A DNA stretch of 61,113 nucleotides, the filler included, from Candidatus Tectimicrobiota bacterium (GTDB lineage: Bacteria; JACPSX01), in NCBI GenBank assembly GCA_016193065.1. It is 6 parts of 6 records of this genome, joined end to end, with 100 filler letters (N's around TTAATTAATTAA, not from the genome) between each part and the next. Parts side by side here need not be neighbours in the genome. Positions count along the whole stretch, not along the records: positions 17,155 to 40,048 come from JACPSX010000255.1; 5 more parts are not named here. One strand, written 5' to 3'. This document shows, piece by piece, positions 31,090 through 40,048 of this stretch. The translations under genes were made by a program, and so were the position numbers. The notes beneath the pieces were generated by a model. It was not told the DNA's origin. It did no database searches and saw only the letters and a program-made list of their open reading frames with translations. Numbering within the stretch: the first letter of the stretch is position 1; every line of letters starts with the position of its first letter.

Positions 31090-32082
31090 ATGATCCTGCC
31101 GTTCTACTTCAAGAATCCCGCCTTTCTCTGGCTGCTCCTGTCCCTGGTGCCGCTGACCGGCCTTCTCCTGCTGGGCCACAGGAGGCGATCGGAACTGCTG
31201 CGGCAATTCGGACGAACGGAGCTGTTGCGCGAGTTTTCCTATCTCTCTTCGGGCCGCTCCCGGTTTTTATCCGCAGCGATTCTCGGCGCGTTTTTTGTCC
31301 TGGTCGTGTTGGCTCTGGCCCGCCCCGTTTTGCCGGGCCAGCACGTGCGGGTGAAGGAGGGCATTTTGGATGCGGTCATCGTCCTGGACGTATCCAAAAG
31401 CATGGCGGCGGAAGACTATCCCAACTCCACCTCGAGACTGAAAAAAGCCAAAGAGGTGATCGAGAGCTTTCTGGAGATCTTGCAGGGCAATCGAGTCGGC
31501 CTGGTCACGTTTGCGCGGGAGGGATTTCCCCAGGCAGAGCTCACGGACGATTTTCTGGCTCTGAAGTTCGTGCTGAAATATTGGGTGGAGATTGAGTCAG
31601 CGCCCGGCGGCGGCACGGCATTCCGGCCGGCCATCAAGGAAGCGCTCCAGCTCTTTGATCAGAAGCCCCGGAACAAGCTTCTCGTCCTCCTGAGCGACGG
31701 TGGGGATGAAGCCCCGGAGACCCTAGAGCCCCTGCTGGCGGAAGTGCGGGCGAAAGGGATCAAGATCATCAGCCTGGGCCTTGGCCGGCCTGAGGGGAGC
31801 CCGATTCCTCTCTACGACGAGAAGGGACAGTTCAAGGACTGGATTCAATATCAGGGGAGCCTGGTTCTGACCCGTCTCAACGACTCCCCGTTGAAGAGCC
31901 TGGGCGAGGGCACGAGCGGGATCTATCGCCGGATCAGGACAGGCCTCGAGATCCGTCCTCTGTTCCGGGACCGGCGCGTCGTGGAGAGCAGGCTGATCGA
32001 GGGGGAAATGGAACTTTATCAGATTTTTCTAGGTCTTGGTCTCGCGCTCTTGTGGTGGAACCGCTTTTCCCTGGACCCGTAG
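31090..32082 (+). CDS. VWA domain protein (MxaL/BatB-like)
   Basis: 'LALARP', 'LDVSKSM.AED', 'SRL', 'LLSDG', 'G..EGSPIP'. Confidence 0.88.
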   Translation: MILPFYFKNPAFLWLLLSLVPLTGLLLLGHRRRSELLRQFGRTELLREFSYLSSGRSRFLSAAILGAFFVLVVLALARPVLPGQHVRVKEGILDAVIVLDVSKSMAAEDYPNSTSRLKKAKEVIESFLEILQGNRVGLVTFAREGFPQAELTDDFLALKFVLKYWVEIESAPGGGTAFRPAIKEALQLFDQKPRNKLLVLLSDGGDEAPETLEPLLAEVRAKGIKIISLGLGRPEGSPIPLYDEKGQFKDWIQYQGSLVLTRLNDSPLKSLGEGTSGIYRRIRTGLEIRPLFRDRRVVESRLIEGEMELYQIFLGLGLALLWWNRFSLDP

Positions 32083-32207
32083 TGCCCAACCTTTACCAGC
32101 GCCTCGAACAACTGTTGAACCCTTTAAAATCCCCTCTCCCCCGCGGGGGACAGGGACAAGGGGGGTGCTCCGTCTGTACACACCCTCTTTCTAACTCACC
32201 ACACTAG

Positions 32208-32380
32208 TCCCCTCGATACCCCGTCCCATCACGTGAAGCTGGGTCCCGGGGGCATCTAATCCCAACTGTCTGGGCGTGCCTTCTCATTCCCCCAAGGAGG
32301 TGAACCTGCCAAGTTCATTCAGAAACAACGTCCCTTCGCGCGCGGGAACATCACAAAGCTATTTTTAAGCCTGACCCTTT
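32208..32380 (-). repeat. RAYT-derived mini-element copy 1 (low-coordinate inverted end missing)
   Basis: Core AAGTTCATTCAGAAACAACGTCCC at 32311; degenerate transposase 5' codons; tail AAGCCTGACCC. Confidence 0.85.
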
Positions 32381-32427
32381 CTTTCTTTTGCTTTCTTGCT
32401 GGAGCCAGTTGTTAGAATCAGATATGG

Positions 32428-32652
32428 TCAAGACGCCTTTTCCAGACGCTCTGCGACCCAGACTTTGATAATGGCTTGGCGAGGCACACCCAAACGTTTA
32501 GCCTCTTTGTCCAATAAGTGAACCATCCACAGAGGAAAATCTACATTCACTCTCTTTTGCTCTTGCCCCGGCCTCCTTGCTTTTGACATATCAAGATATT
32601 TGGAAATATCCTCACCCTCGTCAAACTTCTTATCAAATTCACGCGCTTTCAT
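32428..32652 (-). CDS. CopG/BrnA-like RHH antitoxin
   Basis: 'MKAREFDKKFDEGEDI..YLD', 'RVNVDFP.WM...LD.EA.RLGV.RQ'. Confidence 0.85.
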   Translation of the reverse strand: MKAREFDKKFDEGEDISKYLDMSKARRPGQEQKRVNVDFPLWMVHLLDKEAKRLGVPRQAIIKVWVAERLEKAS

Positions 32653-32902
32653 ATATATCAACCTCCTCCTTTCGCGACCGCCTCACGGAAATAATTCTTA
32701 TCTTTTCCCCCCGATGCGTTACGACTCCTGACCAGTATCTTCCTTCGATCTTGCCGATTACTATGAATCGCGGTTCATCGCTGGTTTTCGCAGGAATCTC
32801 CATGAAATCAGGATCGTCCCAAAGCGCCTGGGCTTCATAGAAATCAATACCGTGTTTTGTCTTATTGGCTTGGCTTTTCTTAGGATCGAACTCAAATTCC
32901 AT
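32639..32902 (-). CDS. brnT: BrnT family toxin (DUF497)
   Basis: 'FEFDPKKS..N..KHGIDF', 'IRIISVRR'; own promoter TTGACT-N16-TATAGT just upstream. Confidence 0.9.
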   Translation of the reverse strand: MEFEFDPKKSQANKTKHGIDFYEAQALWDDPDFMEIPAKTSDEPRFIVIGKIEGRYWSGVVTHRGEKIRIISVRRSRKEEVDIYESA

Positions 32903-33106
32903 CGTATAATTACTATACCTTTTATATACCAGTAGTCAACCTGCTAAATTCTTTTCTAACATATTCAAGGATGGAGCAACACGGTTACGGATCGTAATGA
33001 CGGCAAAGGATCAGTCAGGCAGGTGGATGGAAAACGAGAAGGTCAGCGAAAAATAATCAGGTTCAGAGAGGCAGCACTACCGTGAAGCGGTTTCGTTCAA
33101 CGTGAA

Positions 33107-33436
33107 TTAGGCAGTAGCTTGCTGCTGCCTTTGTTTCCGCTGCTGAAGCCATCGCTCGAATGAGGCAGCATTTTCTGCGGACTTTTTGCCAAGCAACAAT
33201 CCCTCAACACCGATATCCTCGTCGGGATCAGGCCAATGGATCCCGTAGCCTGCGCCGTTGATCTGAAGATTGGCGCGCTCGGCTGGTGTGCCCTGGGCCA
33301 GACGTGGATGCCAGCCGATGGGAACAGAGATCGTGCGCCCGTCTTCGAGATCTACGGACAGGGAATTTTCTGTAACCATCACGCTCACAACTCTAGTCAG
33401 TGTGAGTGTAACCGCCGCAGAATGCATCCCATTCAT
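33107..33436 (-). CDS. DUF2442 family protein (putative antitoxin)
   Basis: 'LEDGRTISVP..W.PRL', 'GIHWPD.DEDI.VEGLL.G'. Confidence 0.85.
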   Translation of the reverse strand: MNGMHSAAVTLTLTRVVSVMVTENSLSVDLEDGRTISVPIGWHPRLAQGTPAERANLQINGAGYGIHWPDPDEDIGVEGLLLGKKSAENAASFERWLQQRKQRQQQATA

Positions 33437-33510
33437 TTCTCAGGACCTCCAGATTCTCACGGATAACGCGCTCAATGTCGCGCAACTCCTTGCGAGTATG
33501 GCGAGTTGAT
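33393..33510 (-). pseudogene. 3' remnant of a DUF4160 family gene
   Basis: 'RKELRDIERVIRENLEVLRNEWDAF' overlapping the DUF2442 start; 5' part replaced next to repeat copy 2. Confidence 0.65.
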
Positions 33511-33537
33511 AAAACAGCCTCCTTCTTGGAGAACGGG

Positions 33538-33680
33538 GCTGGGTCCCGGGGGCATCCAACATCGACTGTGTGGGCATGCCCTTTCATTACCCCACCCCAA
33601 GGAGGTGAACCTATCAAGTTCATTCAGAAACAACATCCCGTCGCGCTGCAAACATCGAAAAGCTATTGTGCAAGCCTGAC
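33538..33680 (-). repeat. RAYT-derived mini-element copy 2 (truncated)
   Basis: Core at 33616; GGGTCCCGGGGGCATCCAA...GGGCATGCCC; tail GCAAGCCTGAC. Confidence 0.85.
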
Positions 33681-33745
33681 TGTATGCCACTCCTCTTTGT
33701 AAACGCCAGCTAGACGCGTCCTTTTCCACTGTGGTCCAAGACAGT

Positions 33746-34032
33746 CTATTTGCCACTAGCCAAGATCGCGCTCAGGGCAGATTTGATCGCTTCAAGCGGT
33801 TCCTGCTTGAGAACGCCAACCTCTGCTACTATGAGAGCCGAATTTGCCGTGAACAGTTTTGACGGACGGACATAGCTCTCGATTCGCAGAGACCCAGACC
33901 GAAAGCTTTCGTCGGTCAAGCGAATCGCGTGAGGATCGCCGTACGGATTGCTGGTGATCTGACAGAGGATCCAGTCGTCACGTCCCGCCTCGGCGAGGAC
34001 AGGACTACCGCTCCCGCTGCAGATGGGACCAT
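33746..34032 (-). pseudogene. MazF/PemK family toxin, frameshifted by an internal deletion
   Basis: MVPSAAGAVVL, then a frame change to VLAEAGRDDWILCQITSNPY...SYVRPSKLFTA...; the family's FPFSD...RPA segment is absent. Confidence 0.8.
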
Positions 34033-34226
34033 GCAGCGTCCTCCTCGGGTCGGTTCCAGTCCTGCGCCAGTGCGGGTTCGCTCAGAAGGGACGACTCGTG
34101 GACACCAGCGTCGGCGGGATCATCGAGGATCATCACAAAGGCACGACGCGTGCCCAGCAGCTTGACCGACTCGAGGAGGCGAACGTTACCTTGCTCGTCA
34201 ACTACGGCTTCGATCGCTCTAACCAT
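34005..34226 (-). CDS. Putative antitoxin partner of the MazF-like toxin
   Basis: 'LLSEPALAQDWNRPEEDAAWSHL'; overlaps the toxin start. Confidence 0.75.
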   Translation of the reverse strand: MVRAIEAVVDEQGNVRLLESVKLLGTRRAFVMILDDPADAGVHESSLLSEPALAQDWNRPEEDAAWSHLQRER

Positions 34227-34272
34227 GAGGCGCCTCCTGACACATTATACCATAGCATGGTAAGCGCGAAGG

Positions 34273-34480
34273 AAAAGGGGGACGTTGTTGCCGGGTGCAC
34301 GACCTTCGTCCCCTCGATACCCTGTCCCATTACGTGATGCAGCGTCCCGGGGGCATTCAATCTCGACTGCCTGGGCATGCCCTCTCATTACTCCAAGGAC
34401 GTGGACCCGTCAAGTTCATTCAGAAACAACGTCCCCTCGCGCCCGGGAACATCAAAAAGCCATTTTGCAAGCCTGATCCT
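34273..34480 (-). repeat. RAYT-derived mini-element copy 3 (complete short form)
   Basis: GGGGACGTTGTT (34277)...AACAACGTCCCC (34436); minus frame from ATG 34378 reads MPRQSRLNAPGTLHHVMGQGIEGTKV; tail GCAAGCCTGATCC. Confidence 0.9.
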
Positions 34481-34565
34481 TTCCAGACCCTTTTCCTGGC
34501 ACTCAAAAACAGCTCGATAAATCTATCGCGGATTCTTACAATCAACTTTATAATTTGCAACCGAA

Positions 34566-35372
34566 ATGAAAAGGCGATCTTCCCTCACGGCCGGCCAGTT
34601 TATCGAAGAGCTCCTGGGGCAGGGACGCTACACGTTCGCCCGGGAGGAGGCAGAGCGACGCCTCGGAACGTCGCAGGCGGCCGCCTACATGACCCTGCAC
34701 CGCCTGGTCAAGGCGGGTCGCTTGGTCATGCCCCGGTCCGGGTTCTACGTCATCGTGGACCCGCAGCACCGCGCCGCCGGTACCTTGCCCCCGGAGTGGT
34801 TCATCCACGAGCTCGTGAAGGGCATGGGAAGGCCTTACTATGTCGGCCTGCTGTCGGCTGCCCAGATACACGGCGCGGCGCACCACCGCCCTCAGGAGTT
34901 CCAGGTTGTGATCCCGACGCGGACCATCCGGCCGATCCGCGTGGGGAACGTGCGGATCCGCTTCTTCGGCAAAGGGCCGTTCGACTGCTCCGAGACGGTC
35001 GAGGTCAAGACACCCACGGGCTTCCAGAAAGTGTCTACGCCCGAGACCACGGCCTGGGACTTGGTCCGCTATCCCAGAGCCGCCGGGGGCCTCGGGAATG
35101 TGGTCACGGTGCTCTCCGAACTGGAGGAGCACCTGGACGTGGCCAAACTCCGCAAAACGGTCAGGCGGCACGATGATCTCCTTGTGGCGCAACGACTGGG
35201 CTACCTGCTCGACCAGCTAAGCCGCAGGGACCTCACCAGGGGACTGGCTGACTGGGTCCAGAAGGAGGACGCCCCACTCCGTCCTCTAGATCCGGCCTTG
35301 CCCGTCGCGCGGGGCTCGGAGAGCCGGAAGTGGCACCTCGTGATCAACGCTGAGCTGGAGCCCGAGGCGTGA
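34566..35372 (+). CDS. abiEi: Type IV TA antitoxin, AbiEi family
   Basis: 'GRYTF', 'GFYVIV', 'YYVGLLSAA..HGAAH', 'VSTPETTA.DLV'. Confidence 0.85.
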   Translation: MKRRSSLTAGQFIEELLGQGRYTFAREEAERRLGTSQAAAYMTLHRLVKAGRLVMPRSGFYVIVDPQHRAAGTLPPEWFIHELVKGMGRPYYVGLLSAAQIHGAAHHRPQEFQVVIPTRTIRPIRVGNVRIRFFGKGPFDCSETVEVKTPTGFQKVSTPETTAWDLVRYPRAAGGLGNVVTVLSELEEHLDVAKLRKTVRRHDDLLVAQRLGYLLDQLSRRDLTRGLADWVQKEDAPLRPLDPALPVARGSESRKWHLVINAELEPEA

Positions 35373-35908
35373 TCCCCCAGGCCGCCATCACCCACTGGCG
35401 GAACGTGGCACCCTGGCCCCAGGATGCGCAGGTCGAGCAGGACCTTATCCTCTGCCGCGCCCTGATCGAGATCTTCCGGGACACAGATCTCTCCAGGCGC
35501 GTAATTCTCCGAGGCGGCACGGCCCTGTATAAGCTCTACGCGCCCGCCCCGCTGCGCTACTCCGATGACATTGACCTGGTCCAGCACGCACCCGAGCCCA
35601 TCGGATCCCTTTTAGACGGCCTCCGGTCACGGCTCGACCGGATCCTGGGGACTCCACGGCGGGAGAACAATCCCGATAACGTGACCCTGCGCTACCGCAT
35701 GGAGTCCGAAATCCCGCCGGTGGTGCCCCTGCGTCTCAAGATCGAGATCAACACCCGGGAGCACTTTGACGTGTACGGAGTGGTCGTGCGTCCCTTGGCT
35801 GTTCGGTCGCCCTGGTTCAATCTCGCCTCCCGCCCGTTCAATGATGATCTGCGGCTGTGTGAGCCCTTCCCCCCATTTCCCCAAAAGCAAGGGCATGTAG
35901 CCCGATAG
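35369..35908 (+). pseudogene. abiEii: AbiEii nucleotidyltransferase toxin, C-terminally truncated
   Basis: 'QVEQDL', 'RGGTAL.KL', 'RYSDDIDL', 'LKIEINTREH'; recognisable similarity stops at 'RSPWF' (~35818); no K..A...R...RD..D motif. Confidence 0.75.
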
Positions 35909-35933
35909 CGGCCAGTCCCTTCGTCGGTAGCGA

Positions 35934-35991
35934 ACAGGGGGAGGTTGTTTCCGGGTGGACGGCCTTCCTTCCCTCGATACCCCGTCACATC
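35934..35991 (-). repeat. RAYT-derived mini-element copy 4, first half
   Basis: GGGGGAGGTTGTTTCCGGGTGGAC...CCCTCGATACCCCGTCACATC. Confidence 0.8.
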
Positions 35992-36084
35992 AGTCAGAAG
36001 GAAGTGGAAGATTATCTCGGCATGCACTACTCGACGGTGAGTAAGCTTTTAGCAGTGCCAAGATCCAAGGACCTGACCCTATGA
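35992..36084 (+). pseudogene. 3' remnant (HTH) of a second Y1/RAYT-like transposase
   Basis: Reads SQKEVEDYLGMHYSTVSKLL..., ending across ACCTGACCC. Confidence 0.6.
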
Positions 36085-36480
36085 CTTCTATGACTTGCTG
36101 CTTCGGGTCCCTTTGGAAACCTTGACCGACCGGGAGCTCTGTGAGCTTGCTATTGCCGAAGCTGTTGACCTCACCGCTTGTGCCCGGGAGGAAATGCCAG
36201 GCATGTACGTAGTGCACGACAGAAGGGCGCTCGTGGCTAGGCTCCAAGAGCGCCGCGAGAAAGTGCGAGCTGCACGGTCAGATAGAAAGGCCACCATTGC
36301 TCTGTGGCTGTCACTTCTCAGCCTCGCTGCCGCCGTTGCGAACACCATGATCAACGTGTTTGCTCAAGTACCTCGCAGGCAAGTGAGGGATCCGGGTATA
36401 CCTTACTTAATTTGTTACCCTCCTTGCTTCCATCGGGCCTGGCTTCTGCCACCTCAGTGTCCGCTCTACGACCAGCTCCA

Positions 36481-36680
36481 GCATCCAATCTGGACTTTCT
36501 GGGCAAGGGCTCTCTTTACCCCCGAGGAAGTGAACCTTGGAAGTTCATTCAGAAACAACGTCCCCTATCGCTGGTGACGTCCCCTATGGCTGGCCCAGCG
36601 CATTGCCAGCGCGGGCAGGCCAGAGGCGAATCCATTCTCCAAGCAGCAAAAAGCAATTATGCAAGCCTTCTCTGACCCTT
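36481..36680 (-). repeat. RAYT-derived mini-element copy 4, second half
   Basis: GCATCCAATCTGGACTTTCTGGGCA; core at 36541; tail GCAAGCC..TCTGACCC. Confidence 0.8.
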
Positions 36681-36724
36681 CCCTGCTTCCTGCTGTGGGT
36701 TAGGCGCCTCCACCTTTTGACTGT

Positions 36725-37246
36725 TCATGGAAAGAACTTTGCAAACTCCTCGAGGTCTTTGGCGAATGTCGGATCGGCACGGCTTTTCCGTTTTGCGTCG
36801 ATAACCGAATAATGAAGTCGGAAGAACGTCCGCGCTTCGCTGCCAAAGAACGCCTTCGCGGTTGCTGCATCACAAATATCGCTGCGTACGCAAATTTGCA
36901 GAACGCCAAAAAAGTCGATGACGGCAAGGACGTCACTCGTCAGCTTCTCATTTTTTACAACAGTGCGAACAAAACTCACCCATTGATCTGTTCGTAACTT
37001 GGGATCATCAAGAAGCGCATCCATTCGTGCTTCGTATTTGAGCCAAGCGTTTGTTATTCGTTGCCAGCTGTCATATGTTGGTGGTTTATGGAACCTCTCG
37101 ACGAAGGACAGACTTTCCTTTACGCGGTCGGCTTTTTCTTTTTCCAAGTACTGGTATCCTGCAAATATTCCTCCAATGAGGGCCCCTATCACCGTAACAG
37201 CTATGCCAACTATTTCAGTGATGGTTTTCCATTCGTCAAGTTTCAT
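36725..37246 (-). CDS. Hypothetical protein with N-terminal TM helix (DUF4760-like)
   Basis: Lower-GC ORF, TM 'IVGIAVTVIGALIGGIFAG', 'IDFF..L..C'. Confidence 0.65.
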   Translation of the reverse strand: MKLDEWKTITEIVGIAVTVIGALIGGIFAGYQYLEKEKADRVKESLSFVERFHKPPTYDSWQRITNAWLKYEARMDALLDDPKLRTDQWVSFVRTVVKNEKLTSDVLAVIDFFGVLQICVRSDICDAATAKAFFGSEARTFFRLHYSVIDAKRKSRADPTFAKDLEEFAKFFP

Positions 37247-37254
37247 AGCATCCC

Positions 37255-37527
37255 CTATTTGCATCCTGGGAGATCGGGCTTCTTGAGACAGGGATCAGGT
37301 AGTTGTAGGACGTCCGGAGGCATTGGCTTATCCTTCGAGGGAAATTCCGGCTTCTCCTTTGAAGGAGGCTCCTTTCCCTTTTCGGGGAGTGCTTTCTCAG
37401 GAGCGCTTTTTCGGGGCGATTCGATTACAGGCCTGTCCTTGGAAGGCTTCTCCTGGGCATAGGAGGCCGTTGGGGTGACGATAAACATTCCAACCACACA
37501 AGCAAGAATAGCCAACCGCAGTTCCAT
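37255..37527 (-). CDS. Small secreted Pro/Lys/Glu-rich protein
   Basis: Signal peptide (ASYA), repeated (E)KPSK/PPSK units, terminal 'DPC..K..LPGC'. Confidence 0.6.
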   Translation of the reverse strand: MELRLAILACVVGMFIVTPTASYAQEKPSKDRPVIESPRKSAPEKALPEKGKEPPSKEKPEFPSKDKPMPPDVLQLPDPCLKKPDLPGCK

Positions 37528-37613
37528 TTCGTTGTCACCCCCGGGTTTCAGGTTTCCAGGTCCGACAGCAAGGAGGGCTCCTGGCAATCCATAAGTAAGC
37601 GCCTCACGGGACG

Positions 37614-37896
37614 AAAGGGGAACGTTGTTTCCGGGTGAACTGAAAGATATCGCTCAGGACCCAGAAGACCATCGGATCGAGCCGCCCGGACAACCGCGGA
37701 GGCCGTCACGCCTGGAAACCGAGCCACCTGTGCTCCAGGATACCCCATCTTGCCTAACTTCCCTCGATACTCCGTGCCATCACGCGATGCAGGGTCCCAA
37801 GGGCATCCCCAATCTCGACTGTCTGGGCATGTCCTCTCATTATCCCAAGGAGGTGAACCTATCAAGTTCATTCAGAAACAACGTCCCCTATCGCGC
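37614..37896 (-). mobile_element. RAYT-derived mini-element copy 5 (long form: internally deleted transposase)
   Basis: Both inverted ends present; N-terminal MPRQSRL...LHRVMARSIEG joined to C-terminal GKMGYPGAQVARFPGVTASAVVRAARS. Confidence 0.8.
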
Positions 37897-37904
37897 GCCG
37901 ACAA

Positions 37905-37984
37905 TTCAATTCCTTCCCCCCGGGTACCCTCTGGGTGCGGGGAAGGGCGGGATGGGGGTGTTCTTCCAAATCAGAGCGGAATCA
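37905..37984. repeat. Second local repeat (REP-like), copy A
   Basis: TCAATTCCTTCCCCC...GGATGGGGGTGTTCTTCCAA(A/G)TCAGAGCGGAAT, also at 39075-39167. Confidence 0.75.
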
Positions 37985-38085
37985 CTTCCAGAAACGATCT
38001 CGTTGCTATAGCGAAGAGTTTTTCGTCAACGGAGTTTTCTGCTCTTGACAGCCCGTGGCCTCATAGGTGGCTGGAGTGCCACCGC

Positions 38086-38319
38086 TTATGGCTTGGAGCG
38101 GCCTGGTAGTGCCGAGATCACGGAGCGCAGTAGGGTGTTGACGGACTCCGACGACTCGAAGACCTCTGCGACGTCCGGATCAAGAACAACCGCGATCGTC
38201 CCAGCTCCCATCTGAGCGGCAAAGCGGTTGGGTTTGGCCTTCGTGTAATCGAAGCGATATTCCCGACGCATCTCTTCGGAAAGAACCGGCGATTTCTTAC
38301 GAGCTGACGTTTTCTTCAT
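38086..38319 (-). CDS. Putative antitoxin partner of BrnT
   Basis: 'EMRREYRFDY.KAKPNRFA', 'VLDPDVAEVF.SSESVN..LR'. Confidence 0.8.
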   Translation of the reverse strand: MKKTSARKKSPVLSEEMRREYRFDYTKAKPNRFAAQMGAGTIAVVLDPDVAEVFESSESVNTLLRSVISALPGRSKP

Positions 38320-38584
38320 AGTCCTGGCGTTCCCTCCTTGTCGCTTTCCGTGCACTAAAGATGCGGATCGACGCTCCCCGAGCGGTGAAGCATACTAACA
38401 GCAGACGATGCTGCGTCGAATGTCCAATGATGATTTCGCGCTCTTCCTCACTTGAGTGATCCTCGTCGTCGAAGATGCGGGCGAGAGGATCCGAAAAGGC
38501 CGTGAGACCCTCTTCAAATGAGACGCCATGCTTCGCGAGGTTTGCGGCAGCCTTCTTTGGATCCCATTCGAAGCGTAAACTCAT
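38297..38584 (-). CDS. brnT: BrnT family toxin
   Basis: 'FEWDPKKA.ANL.KHGVSFEE', 'DHS.EEER', 'IRIFSARKAT'. Confidence 0.9.
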   Translation of the reverse strand: MSLRFEWDPKKAAANLAKHGVSFEEGLTAFSDPLARIFDDEDHSSEEEREIIIGHSTQHRLLLVCFTARGASIRIFSARKATRRERQDYEENVSS

Positions 38585-38923
38585 TGCCAGTTTGAAATCC
38601 TACCGCCTCTGTGAAAACTTTCAAGCTCTCCGAGCGGGACGGTTGAAGACACTCTATTGAGTATACTGGTCTGCATAGCACGGTTGCCGAAACTTCCCAC
38701 AACAGCCATGATTCTCTTGCCTTTCCAAGGAGTTGTCAAGGCATCTTACCCTTCGTCTCCTGCCGAAATACCCCACACGACGTGTAGCGGCTGCCCCTCG
38801 TGATCATGTTGTAGAACCAGAACACACGGTCCCTTCGAAATCATGCTCACTGAGACCCCTTCCCGAGCATCCCGCTTGGTAAACCCAGGTCGATCCCAAT
38901 AATCTTTAGGGAGCAGACCTCAT

Positions 38924-39061
38924 ATGAGATTTTACACCAAACAGCACCTACAATACTGCGGAATCCCTCTGCGCGCCCAGGCCGTGTACGTCTGCATCCC
39001 GGACCAGGAGGGCGAGATGGAGTTCCATAGAAACATGCCAGACAGCCGCAGTTTTGACTAG
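38924..39061 (+). pseudogene. IS110 family transposase 5' remnant
   Basis: MRFYTKQHLQYCGIPLRAQAVYVCIPDQEGEMEFHRNM resembles the family N-terminus (YCGIDLH...), with Pro at the catalytic Asp position; truncated. Confidence 0.75.
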
Positions 39062-39074
39062 GCTCGGAATCGGC

Positions 39075-39167
39075 TCAATTCCTTCCCCCTCGATGGGGGA
39101 AGGTGTGCAGACCGGAGTCAAGGGTAAGGGCAGGATGGGGGTGTTCTTCCAAGTCAGAGCGGAATTA
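39075..39167. repeat. Second local repeat (REP-like), copy B
   Basis: CCTTCCCCC-TCGAT-GGGGGAAGG hairpin plus the 3' extension shared with copy A. Confidence 0.75.
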
Positions 39168-39249
39168 CCCCCAGGATTGAGGTCGTCTTCGAGGCGAGGA
39201 GTTTTTCGTTCAGGGAGTTTTCTGCGTTTGAAAGCCGGAATCCTTGCGG

Positions 39250-39410
39250 AAAGGGGGACGTTGTTTCCGGGTGGACGACCTTCGTCCCCTCGATACCCTT
39301 TCCCATCACGTGATGCAGGGTCCCGAAGGCATCCAATCTTGACTTTCTGGGCATGCCCTCTCATTACCCCTAAGGAACGCAACCTGTCAAGTTCATTCAG
39401 AAATAACGGC
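39250..39410 (-). repeat. RAYT-derived mini-element copy 6
   Basis: GGGGGACGTTGTTTCCGGGTG at 39253, core at 39389; minus frame MPRKSRLDAFGTLHHVMGKGIEGTKV. Confidence 0.9.
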
Positions 39411-39574
39411 CTCTGTCCTTCCCGGGCTGTTGAGTTACACCCCTCCCCGGAGGGATACCCCTGCGCTTCACCACATCCGGTCGCCCGGATGCAGCGGGAG
39501 CCCGCTACATGGCTCTCTGGTGATTACCACGACCGGACTTCCACTGGTACGTTGTCAGTGCCTTTCAGGGCAAA
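39411..39574 (-). mobile_element. Probable group II intron 5' fragment (domain I start)
   Basis: Minus strand TTTGCCCTGAAAGGC...CCAGTGGAAGTCCGGTCGTGGTAATCACCAGAGAGCCATGTAGC resembles bacterial group II intron 5' ends; no RT ORF. Confidence 0.5.
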
Positions 39575-39585
39575 TGAATGCGTTG

Positions 39586-40048
39586 CTAGGTTGCCGGCCC
39601 ACTATCCACTAGCCTCCATATGGCTTCCGAGTCGACATTGAATGTGACTAGCAAGTCAAGAAGCTCCCGAATTCGCGAGTACACCCCGTTCTCCCTGGTC
39701 CTAAGCGGAAACCGAATAGGACGAACACCCAAGATTTCCAAATCACGATCGAATAGACTTCGGAACATCGCGTCTCGCTCAACCTCGTCGATCGATCGCG
39801 GCAAGAACGCAAAGTGCCTGTGCGACGACACTGGTCGCCCGAGTCGAAGAAAACGTCGGACGTTGGGATCGGTCATCGAGCTGCCGACGAACACGCACGT
39901 CGATTGGGACAGGTATCCAATCAAGATGACGTCGGGCCACGCGTAAGGCGTGCGGGAGTGTTGGAAGTAGTCATCTTCCCCAAGGACGAGCTGGGTCACA
40001 GGGCCACCACCAAGCCTGAGATAGCCGTGCGGGTGTACAACGGGTAGC
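39586..40048 (-). CDS. SIR2-like (SIR2_2) domain protein, 5' partial
   Basis: 'LPVVHPHGYL', 'LVLGEDDY', 'CVFVGSSMTDPNVRR'. Confidence 0.8.

Follow-up and report, generated by a model that had tools for sequence, protein, structure and literature searches.

How toxin–antitoxin (TA) and defence genes come to stand in regular arrays, with repeated sequence between them, is the question raised by a locus of a groundwater bacterium, Candidatus Tectimicrobiota bacterium, for which we analysed a window of 61,113 nucleotides made of six contigs of one assembly (G000; 2.9 Mb in 294 contigs, completeness 86%) joined by N spacers. Positions 17155-40048 of the window are contig C233, which ends in an 8-kb array where six copies of a short repeat, here c1 to c6, alternate with small gene modules. 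An initial annotation had taken these repeats for joints that capture and shuffle cargo, an analogue of the integron. The explanation that we consider probable is a different one: an island of TA and defence genes was colonised by decayed miniature TIRtrons, which are passive substrates of recombination and not a dedicated capture system. The set of miniature TIRtron derivatives is new, unusually dense and decayed; the kind is already known.

The 15-mer AAGTTCATTCAGAAA, reported as identical at six positions, was present at all six, each time on the plus strand; allowing two mismatches still gave six matches, a number reached in none of 100 shuffles. Alignment of the six regions defined the unit around it, which on the minus strand runs from a left inverted end, GGGGACGTTGTTTCTGA, through a 52-nt leader containing a Shine-Dalgarno-like GAGAGG to an ATG, after which MPRQSRLDAPGTLHHVMGRGIEG is encoded. 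Past the leader the copies retain ~13-30 codons from the start of a Y1/HUH gene, complete copies also have the right inverted end, and the 14-17-nt arms of the repeat are not self-complementary. The co-oriented ~160-bp repeat with inverted ends is real, but its six copies, all on the minus strand, are not uniform. Two are complete 159-bp minis: c3 (34278-34436) has both inverted ends and an intact 58-aa open reading frame (ORF) starting MPRQSRLNAPGTLHHVMGQGIEG, and c6 (39254-39412) has a degenerate left end, AGGCCGTTATTTC, and abuts a group II intron fragment. Copy c5 (37618-37888) is a 271-bp mini with both ends, combining frameshifted N-terminal codons with ~30 C-terminal codons of a putative helix-turn-helix (HTH). 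Both ends are likewise present in c4 (35938-36565), where ~490 bp without a Pfam match (35993-36480) replace or interrupt the interior and the reading frame begins at TTG and matches for 10 codons before diverging. The remaining two have one end each: c1 (32204-32342; nhmmer E 8e-36) keeps the left end on the GAAACAACGTCCC side, the leader and ~30 degenerate codons with ACG as start, and c2 (33537-33646; E 1e-23) keeps the same end, the leader and ~13 codons joined to a DUF4160-like remnant, itself a weak Pfam match (E 0.13, 12.9 bits). Since the c2-type junction recurs in two copies on contig C73, composite pieces were duplicated. As for the peptide ascribed to the repeat, MPRxSRLDAPGTLHHVMGxGIEG, it is intact in c3 and c6 but degenerate or cut in the other four copies. 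Special constraint on the left end was considered and rejected, because conservation is too even across the unit (mean column identity 0.93 in the 21-nt block of the left end, 0.87 in the rest of the leader and 0.91 in the codons).

Full-length parents were sought by scanning metagenome contigs for the pattern GTTGTTTCTKAATRAAYTTGA. The scan gave 67 loci, 55 of which carry the 17-nt end with at most three mismatches. At six loci a complete ORF of 321-330 aa follows 52-53 nt after the motif; one more locus has an ORF, the seventh, that is incomplete at the contig end. Four loci (L055, L078, L085 and L095) have both ends and yield a 1,074-bp element in which the inverted end comes 9 nt past the ORF stop; the 17-nt ends also frame a 1,074-bp element in a further genome, G002. 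The gene in G002 lies at 1972652-1973641, and like that of L085 it is intact (330-332 aa). Besides metagenomes, Desulfobacteraceae MAGs (metagenome-assembled genomes) contain full-length parents. The parent is a single gene for a 330-aa protein with a Y1_Tnp domain and a putative HTH, enclosed by terminal inverted repeats (TIRs) of 17-24 nt. Its Y1_Tnp domain scored 38.9 (L085) and 43.6 bits (L055) against a cut-off of 23, its match to Bac_DnaA_C was weak (19.7-20.1 bits, E 7e-4 to 9e-4, cut-off 31.5), and all seven ORFs carry the motifs NHFH and YIHLNP. With the model NF047646 (REP_Tyr_transpos) of REP-associated transposases, parents scored 57.7 and 60.5 bits, below the cut-off of 80.

These features lead to a group that has been named before. 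Di Nocera et al. (2013; PMC3733652) called RAYT-like genes within long TIRs TIRYTs, and the elements TIRtrons, giving GGGGWSAS as the shared TIR motif and describing the repeat families as moderately abundant, with some of the repeats dimeric or clustered. In the classification of Quentin et al. (2018; PMC6006769), most TIRYTs belong to TnpAY1 subclass 2.1, marked by NH[YF]H as HuH motif, Y[IV]HLNP as Y motif and an HTH like DnaA_C at the C-terminus; their Table 1 gives NHVH or NH[YF]H as HuH motifs and YIELNP or Y[IV]HLNP as Y motifs. For the class as a whole, the C-terminal HTH resembles Bac_DnaA_C, HTH_23 or HTH_28. The same set is RAYT group 1 of Bertels et al. (2017; PMC5581495), the widest-spread group and, the IS200-like group excepted, the most IS-like. 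Judged by their sequence, the repeats derive from TIRtron/TIRYT elements (TnpAY1 subclass 2.1, RAYT group 1). Their attribution to a Y1/HUH element related to RAYTs, the REP-associated tyrosine transposases, has held up, with parents that share their ends, and TIRYT/TIRtron is the more precise name.

Likeness to TIRtrons extends from the single Y1/HUH gene in long TIRs starting GGGG[AT][CG], the NHFH and YIHLNP motifs and a putative C-terminal HTH with a weak resemblance to Bac_DnaA_C to the low copy number of the gene and the small families of TIR repeats, single, dimeric or clustered. Unlike typical TIRtrons, the window holds only gene-less derivatives (leader, first and last codons), packed and co-oriented between TA and defence modules; the TIR GGGGACGT fits six of the eight positions of GGGGWSAS, and the parents, at 330 aa, are longer than the subclass median of 238 aa. 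The titles of PMC3733652 and PMC6006769 do not concern TA arrays. In a closed deltaproteobacterial MAG the family is represented by one intact full-length element beside one or two relics. A 27-nt stretch of end and leader recurs without change in the chromosome of a deltaproteobacterial MAG and in three Desulfobacteraceae MAGs (L119, L121-L123), and because Desulfobacteraceae MAGs and the candidate phylum have it in common, the element family crosses phyla.

Other small mobile repeats compare less closely. REPINs (Bertels and Rainey 2011) are inverted pairs that lie on either side of the gene for a Y1 enzyme, present once per genome, which reportedly mobilises them, and the window minis resemble them as non-autonomous pairs of inverted sequences; unlike REPINs, the minis do not end in short palindromic REP hairpins with a GTAG tag, they form 12 clustered copies where REPINs are scattered in hundreds genome-wide, and the parents fall below the REP_Tyr_transpos cut-off. 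Miniature inverted-repeat transposable elements share the size (157-271 bp), the inverted ends of 17-24 nt, the multiple copies, the lack of a working gene, the origin by internal deletion and the recurrence of one deletion form at several sites, but here the parent enzyme is of Y1/HUH and not DDE type, and target-site duplication is not evident. Elements of the IS200/IS605 type lack TIRs and have subterminal hairpins, whereas TIRs are present here and the Y motif is YIHLNP (class 2 type), not Y---Q.

When the parent protein was used as tblastn query, only its end regions were found among the copies: aa 1-26 in c1, c3 and c6 at 68-77% identity (77% for c3, E 7e-7), aa 295-323 in c5 at 72%, and elsewhere aa 1-81 in one copy on contig C207 and aa 265-329 in the C73 copies. 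On this account no window copy can encode the enzyme, and all are internally deleted and non-autonomous. The 159-bp form with one deletion junction is present in c3, in c6, at C207:17894-18052 and in the sister species G001 (same genus; a MAG with completeness 91%), with different flanks in every case. In one metagenome series, moreover, three minis share one fusion point, where aa 1-37 run into aa 298-330, but have unrelated flanks, their neighbours being an integrase, a Phd/PIN pair, and MgtE with enoyl-CoA hydratase. That identical deletion forms sit at unrelated sites argues for past mobilisation of the minis in trans, which supports this part of the earlier proposal. The flanks of 17 metagenome and 3 G000 elements showed no target-site duplication; a TAAAG/CTTT similarity of flanks was rejected as a duplication, being an extension of the inverted repeat.

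A search of G000 for an intact Y1_Tnp gene between the same inverted ends did not find one, and an intact cognate TIRYT gene was not found in G001 either. The nearest gene, at C158:3-725, covers aa 89-329 at 63% identity with an in-frame TAG and is cut by the contig start; the end of this TIRtron pseudogene (C158, 3-740), GGGGACGTAGGTTC, differs at 3 of 14 bases. At C67:71-827 stands an intact TIRYT of 215 aa that belongs to another lineage, with 23-nt repeats carrying GGGGACAC (8/8 of GGGGWSAS).

An nhmmer profile built from the three complete copies and run against the whole assembly (E <= 2e-5) gave 12 copies, six on C233, three on C207, two on C73 and one on C292, and nothing outside these four contigs, to which the few isolated end fragments are also confined. 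Together the 12 copies span 16.8 kb, or 0.6% of the assembly, with uniform orientation within each contig. Accessory genes also surround other copies: C207 has PemK, an alpha-amylase and DUF2204, while C292 has a HAD hydrolase and DUF5615. The contigs C77, C233, C207, C73 and C292 share no suffix-prefix overlap of at least 20 nt. In the collection, order and phylum each comprise only G000 and G001, and G001 has three copies on one 3-kb contig; the orthologue of c1, with 75 nt of flank, is present there. Pairwise identity among 13 copies is 73-91%, and because the two positional orthologues of G000 and G001 are 78% and 82% identical, the copies are old, of about the age of the split of the species. 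The genome-wide distribution is clustered, on contigs of the island, but in other organisms the family lies between ordinary genes: at 15 metagenome loci, housekeeping genes make up most of the neighbours and TA pairs a few.

The cargo was assigned by Pfam, each score being set against the cut-off of its model. Upstream of c1, the last copy before it, lies an ordinary DUF58/VWA/BatA/TPR operon. Between c1 and c2 are a BrnT toxin with a CopG/ribbon-helix-helix antitoxin (32428-32902, minus strand; BrnT_toxin 94.0 bits, CopG_antitoxin 26.5 bits, below the cut-off of 28), for which the promoter scan gave a promoter-like site of its own at 32939-32912, and a DUF2442 protein (33107-33436, minus strand; 75.2 bits). 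A decayed MazF/PemK-like gene follows with a small upstream ORF (33746-34226, minus strand); PemK_toxin scored 22.7 bits (cut-off 23.1) over profile positions 37-109 only, and the small ORF had no Pfam match. AbiEi and AbiEii (34566-35908) are on the plus strand, with 122.7 bits for AbiEi_1 and 52.6 bits for AbiEii over positions 6-127 of a 238-position profile; AbiEii is 3'-truncated, ending 30 bases before c4 with half of its profile left. Further on come a DUF4760 membrane protein with a 110-aa ORF (36725-37587, minus strand; 38.9 bits) and a second BrnT with a small downstream ORF (38086-38584, minus strand; 97.5 bits), this module being bounded by 115-bp direct repeats at 37939-38053 and 39122-39236 that are 83-84% identical. 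Sequence related to the 115-bp repeat is also found on C292. For a 45-aa ORF at 38924-39061, an IS110-like identity was rejected as it lacks Pfam support.

The last copy, c6, cuts off the 5' fragment of a group II intron (39415-39550, minus strand; Rfam RF02003, 46.4 bits with a gathering score of 49, E 5e-8), and a similar junction of intron and left end is seen at another locus in run X1. Rfam searches of a further 61 kb, made up of seven stretches from elsewhere in the island and 6 kb of C131, gave no match at E <= 0.01. Finally, a SIR2-like gene (39586-40047, minus strand; SIR2_2 34.9 bits, above cut-off) runs off the contig end, and the array is truncated at 40048 by the contig joint, as had been claimed. 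Six of the seven cargo modules share the strand of the copies. The cargo list of the initial annotation stands for both BrnT genes, DUF2442, AbiEi, DUF4760 and SIR2_2, which are above cut-off, but not in full for PemK, which is partial and below cut-off, or AbiEii, of which half a profile remains.

A second repeat, D8, has four minus-strand copies in the window (32342-32372, 33646-33677, 34443-34474 and 36637-36668), which stand 6-10 nt upstream of the left ends of c1, c2 and c3 and 65 nt from c4. Its minus-strand core is AGGCTTGCATAATTGCTTTTTGATGTT, preceded by two or three direct GGGTCA repeats. Genome-wide there are 13 copies, 8 of them without an adjacent Y1 mini; beyond the array, copies are on C48, C116, C131, C188 (three), C199 and C292. 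D8 precedes a Y1 left end by 6-10 nt in five cases, a GC-rich repeat in seven, and a ribosome-binding site with ATG in one. The idea that D8 is the 3' arm of an attC site was rejected after the 13 copies, when folded, showed no common hairpin, and the promoter scan made no call for it as a sigma-70 consensus promoter. At 32130-32165 we also observed a GC-rich palindrome with the core CCCCCGCGGGGG. The stretch of the sister genome that matches it also matches seven other G000 contigs (C116, C287, C85, C30, C149, C137 and C161), because of which it looks like a member of a REP-like family.

If the minis were working joints, at which a Y1 enzyme acting in trans captures, excises and shuffles modules, the array would be an HUH-based integron-like platform. 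All 12 copies are clustered and co-oriented within contigs and most modules lie on their strand, as such a platform would have them, and the genome does contain an intact TIRtron of another lineage, on C67 with its GGGGACAC ends. Cargo also differs between relatives, with differences that touch the copies. In G001 the end of G000 contig C207 (91% identity) is joined to C292:2132-2856 (85%) through a complete element, which in G000 is truncated and followed by other DNA. The public runs that contain the array stretch are groundwater metagenomes, and we compared assembled contigs (depth 3-5) of two runs, X5 and X6, from a second groundwater study; array segments in this lineage are near-identical to ours, while a flanking core gene has diverged by 6-7%.

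The breakpoints themselves tell against joints of this kind. In the X5/X6 contigs 36087 is followed, after 3 filler bases, by 37845, so that they lack the DUF4760 module as well as c4's 5' part and c5's 3' part. This one firm deletion ends inside the foreign insert of c4 and inside the leader of c5, which are neither homologous to each other nor element ends, so that breakpoints at repeat ends, looked for in relatives, were not what the comparison gave. A second joint, 34272 to 37613, is equally readable as a longer, c5-type element at the place of c3. Joints in runs X1 and X2 (32334 to 39464; 37709 or 37756 to 39277; 36668 to 38654) were rejected as variants of the locus and read as other loci, because their sides measure only 20-46 nt and C73, among other places, has paralogous copies. 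Further points count against a working platform: c1 and c2 have a single end each, some copies have shortened cargo genes, the copies are 9-27% diverged, the family elsewhere has no tie to TA cargo, and the cognate enzyme was not found. No unit of cargo plus element was seen to move, and the proposal of cargo-capturing joints, an integron analogue, was not supported. We consider it unlikely, and retain it at that level because the confinement of the copies, their common orientation and the mosaic of X5/X6 are left unexplained.

Another way of moving cargo would be one-ended or read-through transposition of the IS91/ISCR kind, in which copying starts at the left end, passes the place of a missing right end and carries downstream DNA along. 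The left end is kept in all 12 genome copies, many of which have a right side that is cut short or has given way to other sequence, and cargo lies downstream in the same orientation. The complete copies c3, c5 and c6 have their cargo outside them, however; only the unit of c2 fits the model, and deletion explains c2 equally well. Enzymes of this Y1 clade are not known to use a rolling-circle mechanism, and the passages of Quentin et al. (PMC6006769) that deal with the clade make no such claim. We hold this mode of transfer to be very improbable.

The array could, in principle, be what remains of a chromosomal integron, or an integrase-less cluster of attC sites (CALIN), with atypical or eroded attC sites and with the minis as secondary invaders. 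IS1111-attC elements and group IIC introns are secondary invaders of other integrons, and the array contains a group II intron fragment; like integron arrays, it has co-oriented, small, TA-rich modules of cassette-like cargo between repeated structured sequence. The genome, too, has an integron integrase. A true IntI is encoded at C77:1416-2633 (L019; TIGR02249 378 bits against a cut-off of 265; 42.8% identity with IntI1). The contig measures 2.6 kb, and the gene stands there beside an alcohol dehydrogenase gene with its 5' side off the contig. On C73 the last ~28 codons of intI directly follow the right end of a mini (C73:1162-1245, L110), and short intI fragments, mostly of the C-terminal box with the catalytic Tyr, are also on C49, C131, C188, C48, C98, C41 and C103. 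At metagenome locus L084 an IntI 70% identical to that of C77 is followed by a mini. The assertion that the array has no local tyrosine integrase needs qualifying: the genome has an IntI on C77, which could not be linked to the array, and the end of a dead intI gene abuts a mini on C73. Hairpins that resemble attC sites and are of good form (TAAC...GTTA, the L stem being bulged) stand singly at C188:2140-2217, C131:6669-6759 and C7:5839-5931, two of the three 30-95 nt after an ORF, which suggests that other parts of the genome contain lone integron cassettes or what is left of them.

Evidence from the array itself points the other way. We used two home-made scans for attC sites, one by descriptor and one by folding, with a class 1 integron and a cyanobacterial integron as controls. 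The descriptor scan recovered the one class 1 attC (dfrA14) and at least five sites in the cyanobacterial (Kovacikia) integron, and the fold-based scan recovered the dfrA14 attC and only two of those five Kovacikia sites; an earlier, strict version that required 6/7 R-box pairs gave no sites, yet missed the dfrA14 control too and was replaced for that reason. In the 8-kb array the scans found two weak sites (descriptor) and one tiny site of 51 nt (fold-based), against a background of 161 in 2.9 Mb. An attC site has the order AAC...GTT, whereas on either strand the repeat has inverted ends in the opposite order, GTT...AAC. Unlike cassettes, modules have promoter-like sites of their own and some are truncated. 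The 15 kb upstream on C233 contain no integron integrase, and the other side ends at 40048; no contig-end overlap connects C77 with the array; and G001 has the repeats but no IntI above cut-off. An intI gene with intact attC sites, named at the outset as what would explain the array otherwise, is not what the scans revealed, since neither found an attC array. Given the few weak attC sites, the reversed ends, the lack of an IntI in G001 and the unlinked C77, the array is not filed as an integron, with the scans being home-made and the far side of the array missing. A decayed integron accordingly seems to us quite improbable.

What we favour, then, is colonisation of a TA and defence island by decayed mini TIRtrons. 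The interval would be the end of a variable island beside the Bat/VWA operon. By analogy with IS608 TnpA and TnpAREP, a cognate TIRYT would once have moved the minis in trans on single-stranded DNA, and their common orientation would come from strand-specific insertion. Today the copies may mainly act as direct repeats, 80-90% identical and spaced every 0.8-2.1 kb, and as such could promote deletion, duplication and exchange of modules by homologous or illegitimate recombination.

Several observations weigh against this explanation. Random insertion followed by decay does not account for the confinement to 0.6% of the assembly, the common orientation or the six of seven modules on one strand; local hopping, strand bias or selection may be behind the clustering and orientation. 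The intact cognate transposase was not found in an assembly that is 86% complete, and the attC scans are those home-made ones whose fold-based version recovered two of five Kovacikia controls. The X5/X6 contigs, furthermore, which were compared with positions 31147-40048, differ from the window by 0-0.5% over 37912-40048 (0-1 differences per 200-560 nt) and by 5-7% in the VWA gene and AbiEi. This mosaic hints at recent exchange of array segments, or at a mixed sample, and passive recombination allows such exchange but does not predict it. A role of mini TIRtrons as a scaffold for the exchange of TA and defence genes between lineages, through a Y1/HUH enzyme or through host recombination guided by the copies, is a doubtful proposition in our view. 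Were it true, the array would be a single-strand-DNA counterpart of the integron in a barely sampled phylum, and the near-identical segments would be its trace.

Colonisation by mini TIRtrons carries a caution for annotation: TA modules that alternate regularly with structured repeats do not by themselves make an integron or a new capture system. Among RAYT-like Y1 proteins, the TIRYT branch is both the largest and the one least understood; where they treat the point, PMC3733652 and PMC6006769 leave open whether TIRYTs move DNA, and the latter says that they need more work. Minis with a shared deletion at unrelated sites and a 27-nt identity across phyla amount to evidence, at the level of sequence, of past activity and of passage between phyla, and the data give a concrete pair of substrate and enzyme for a first biochemical test.

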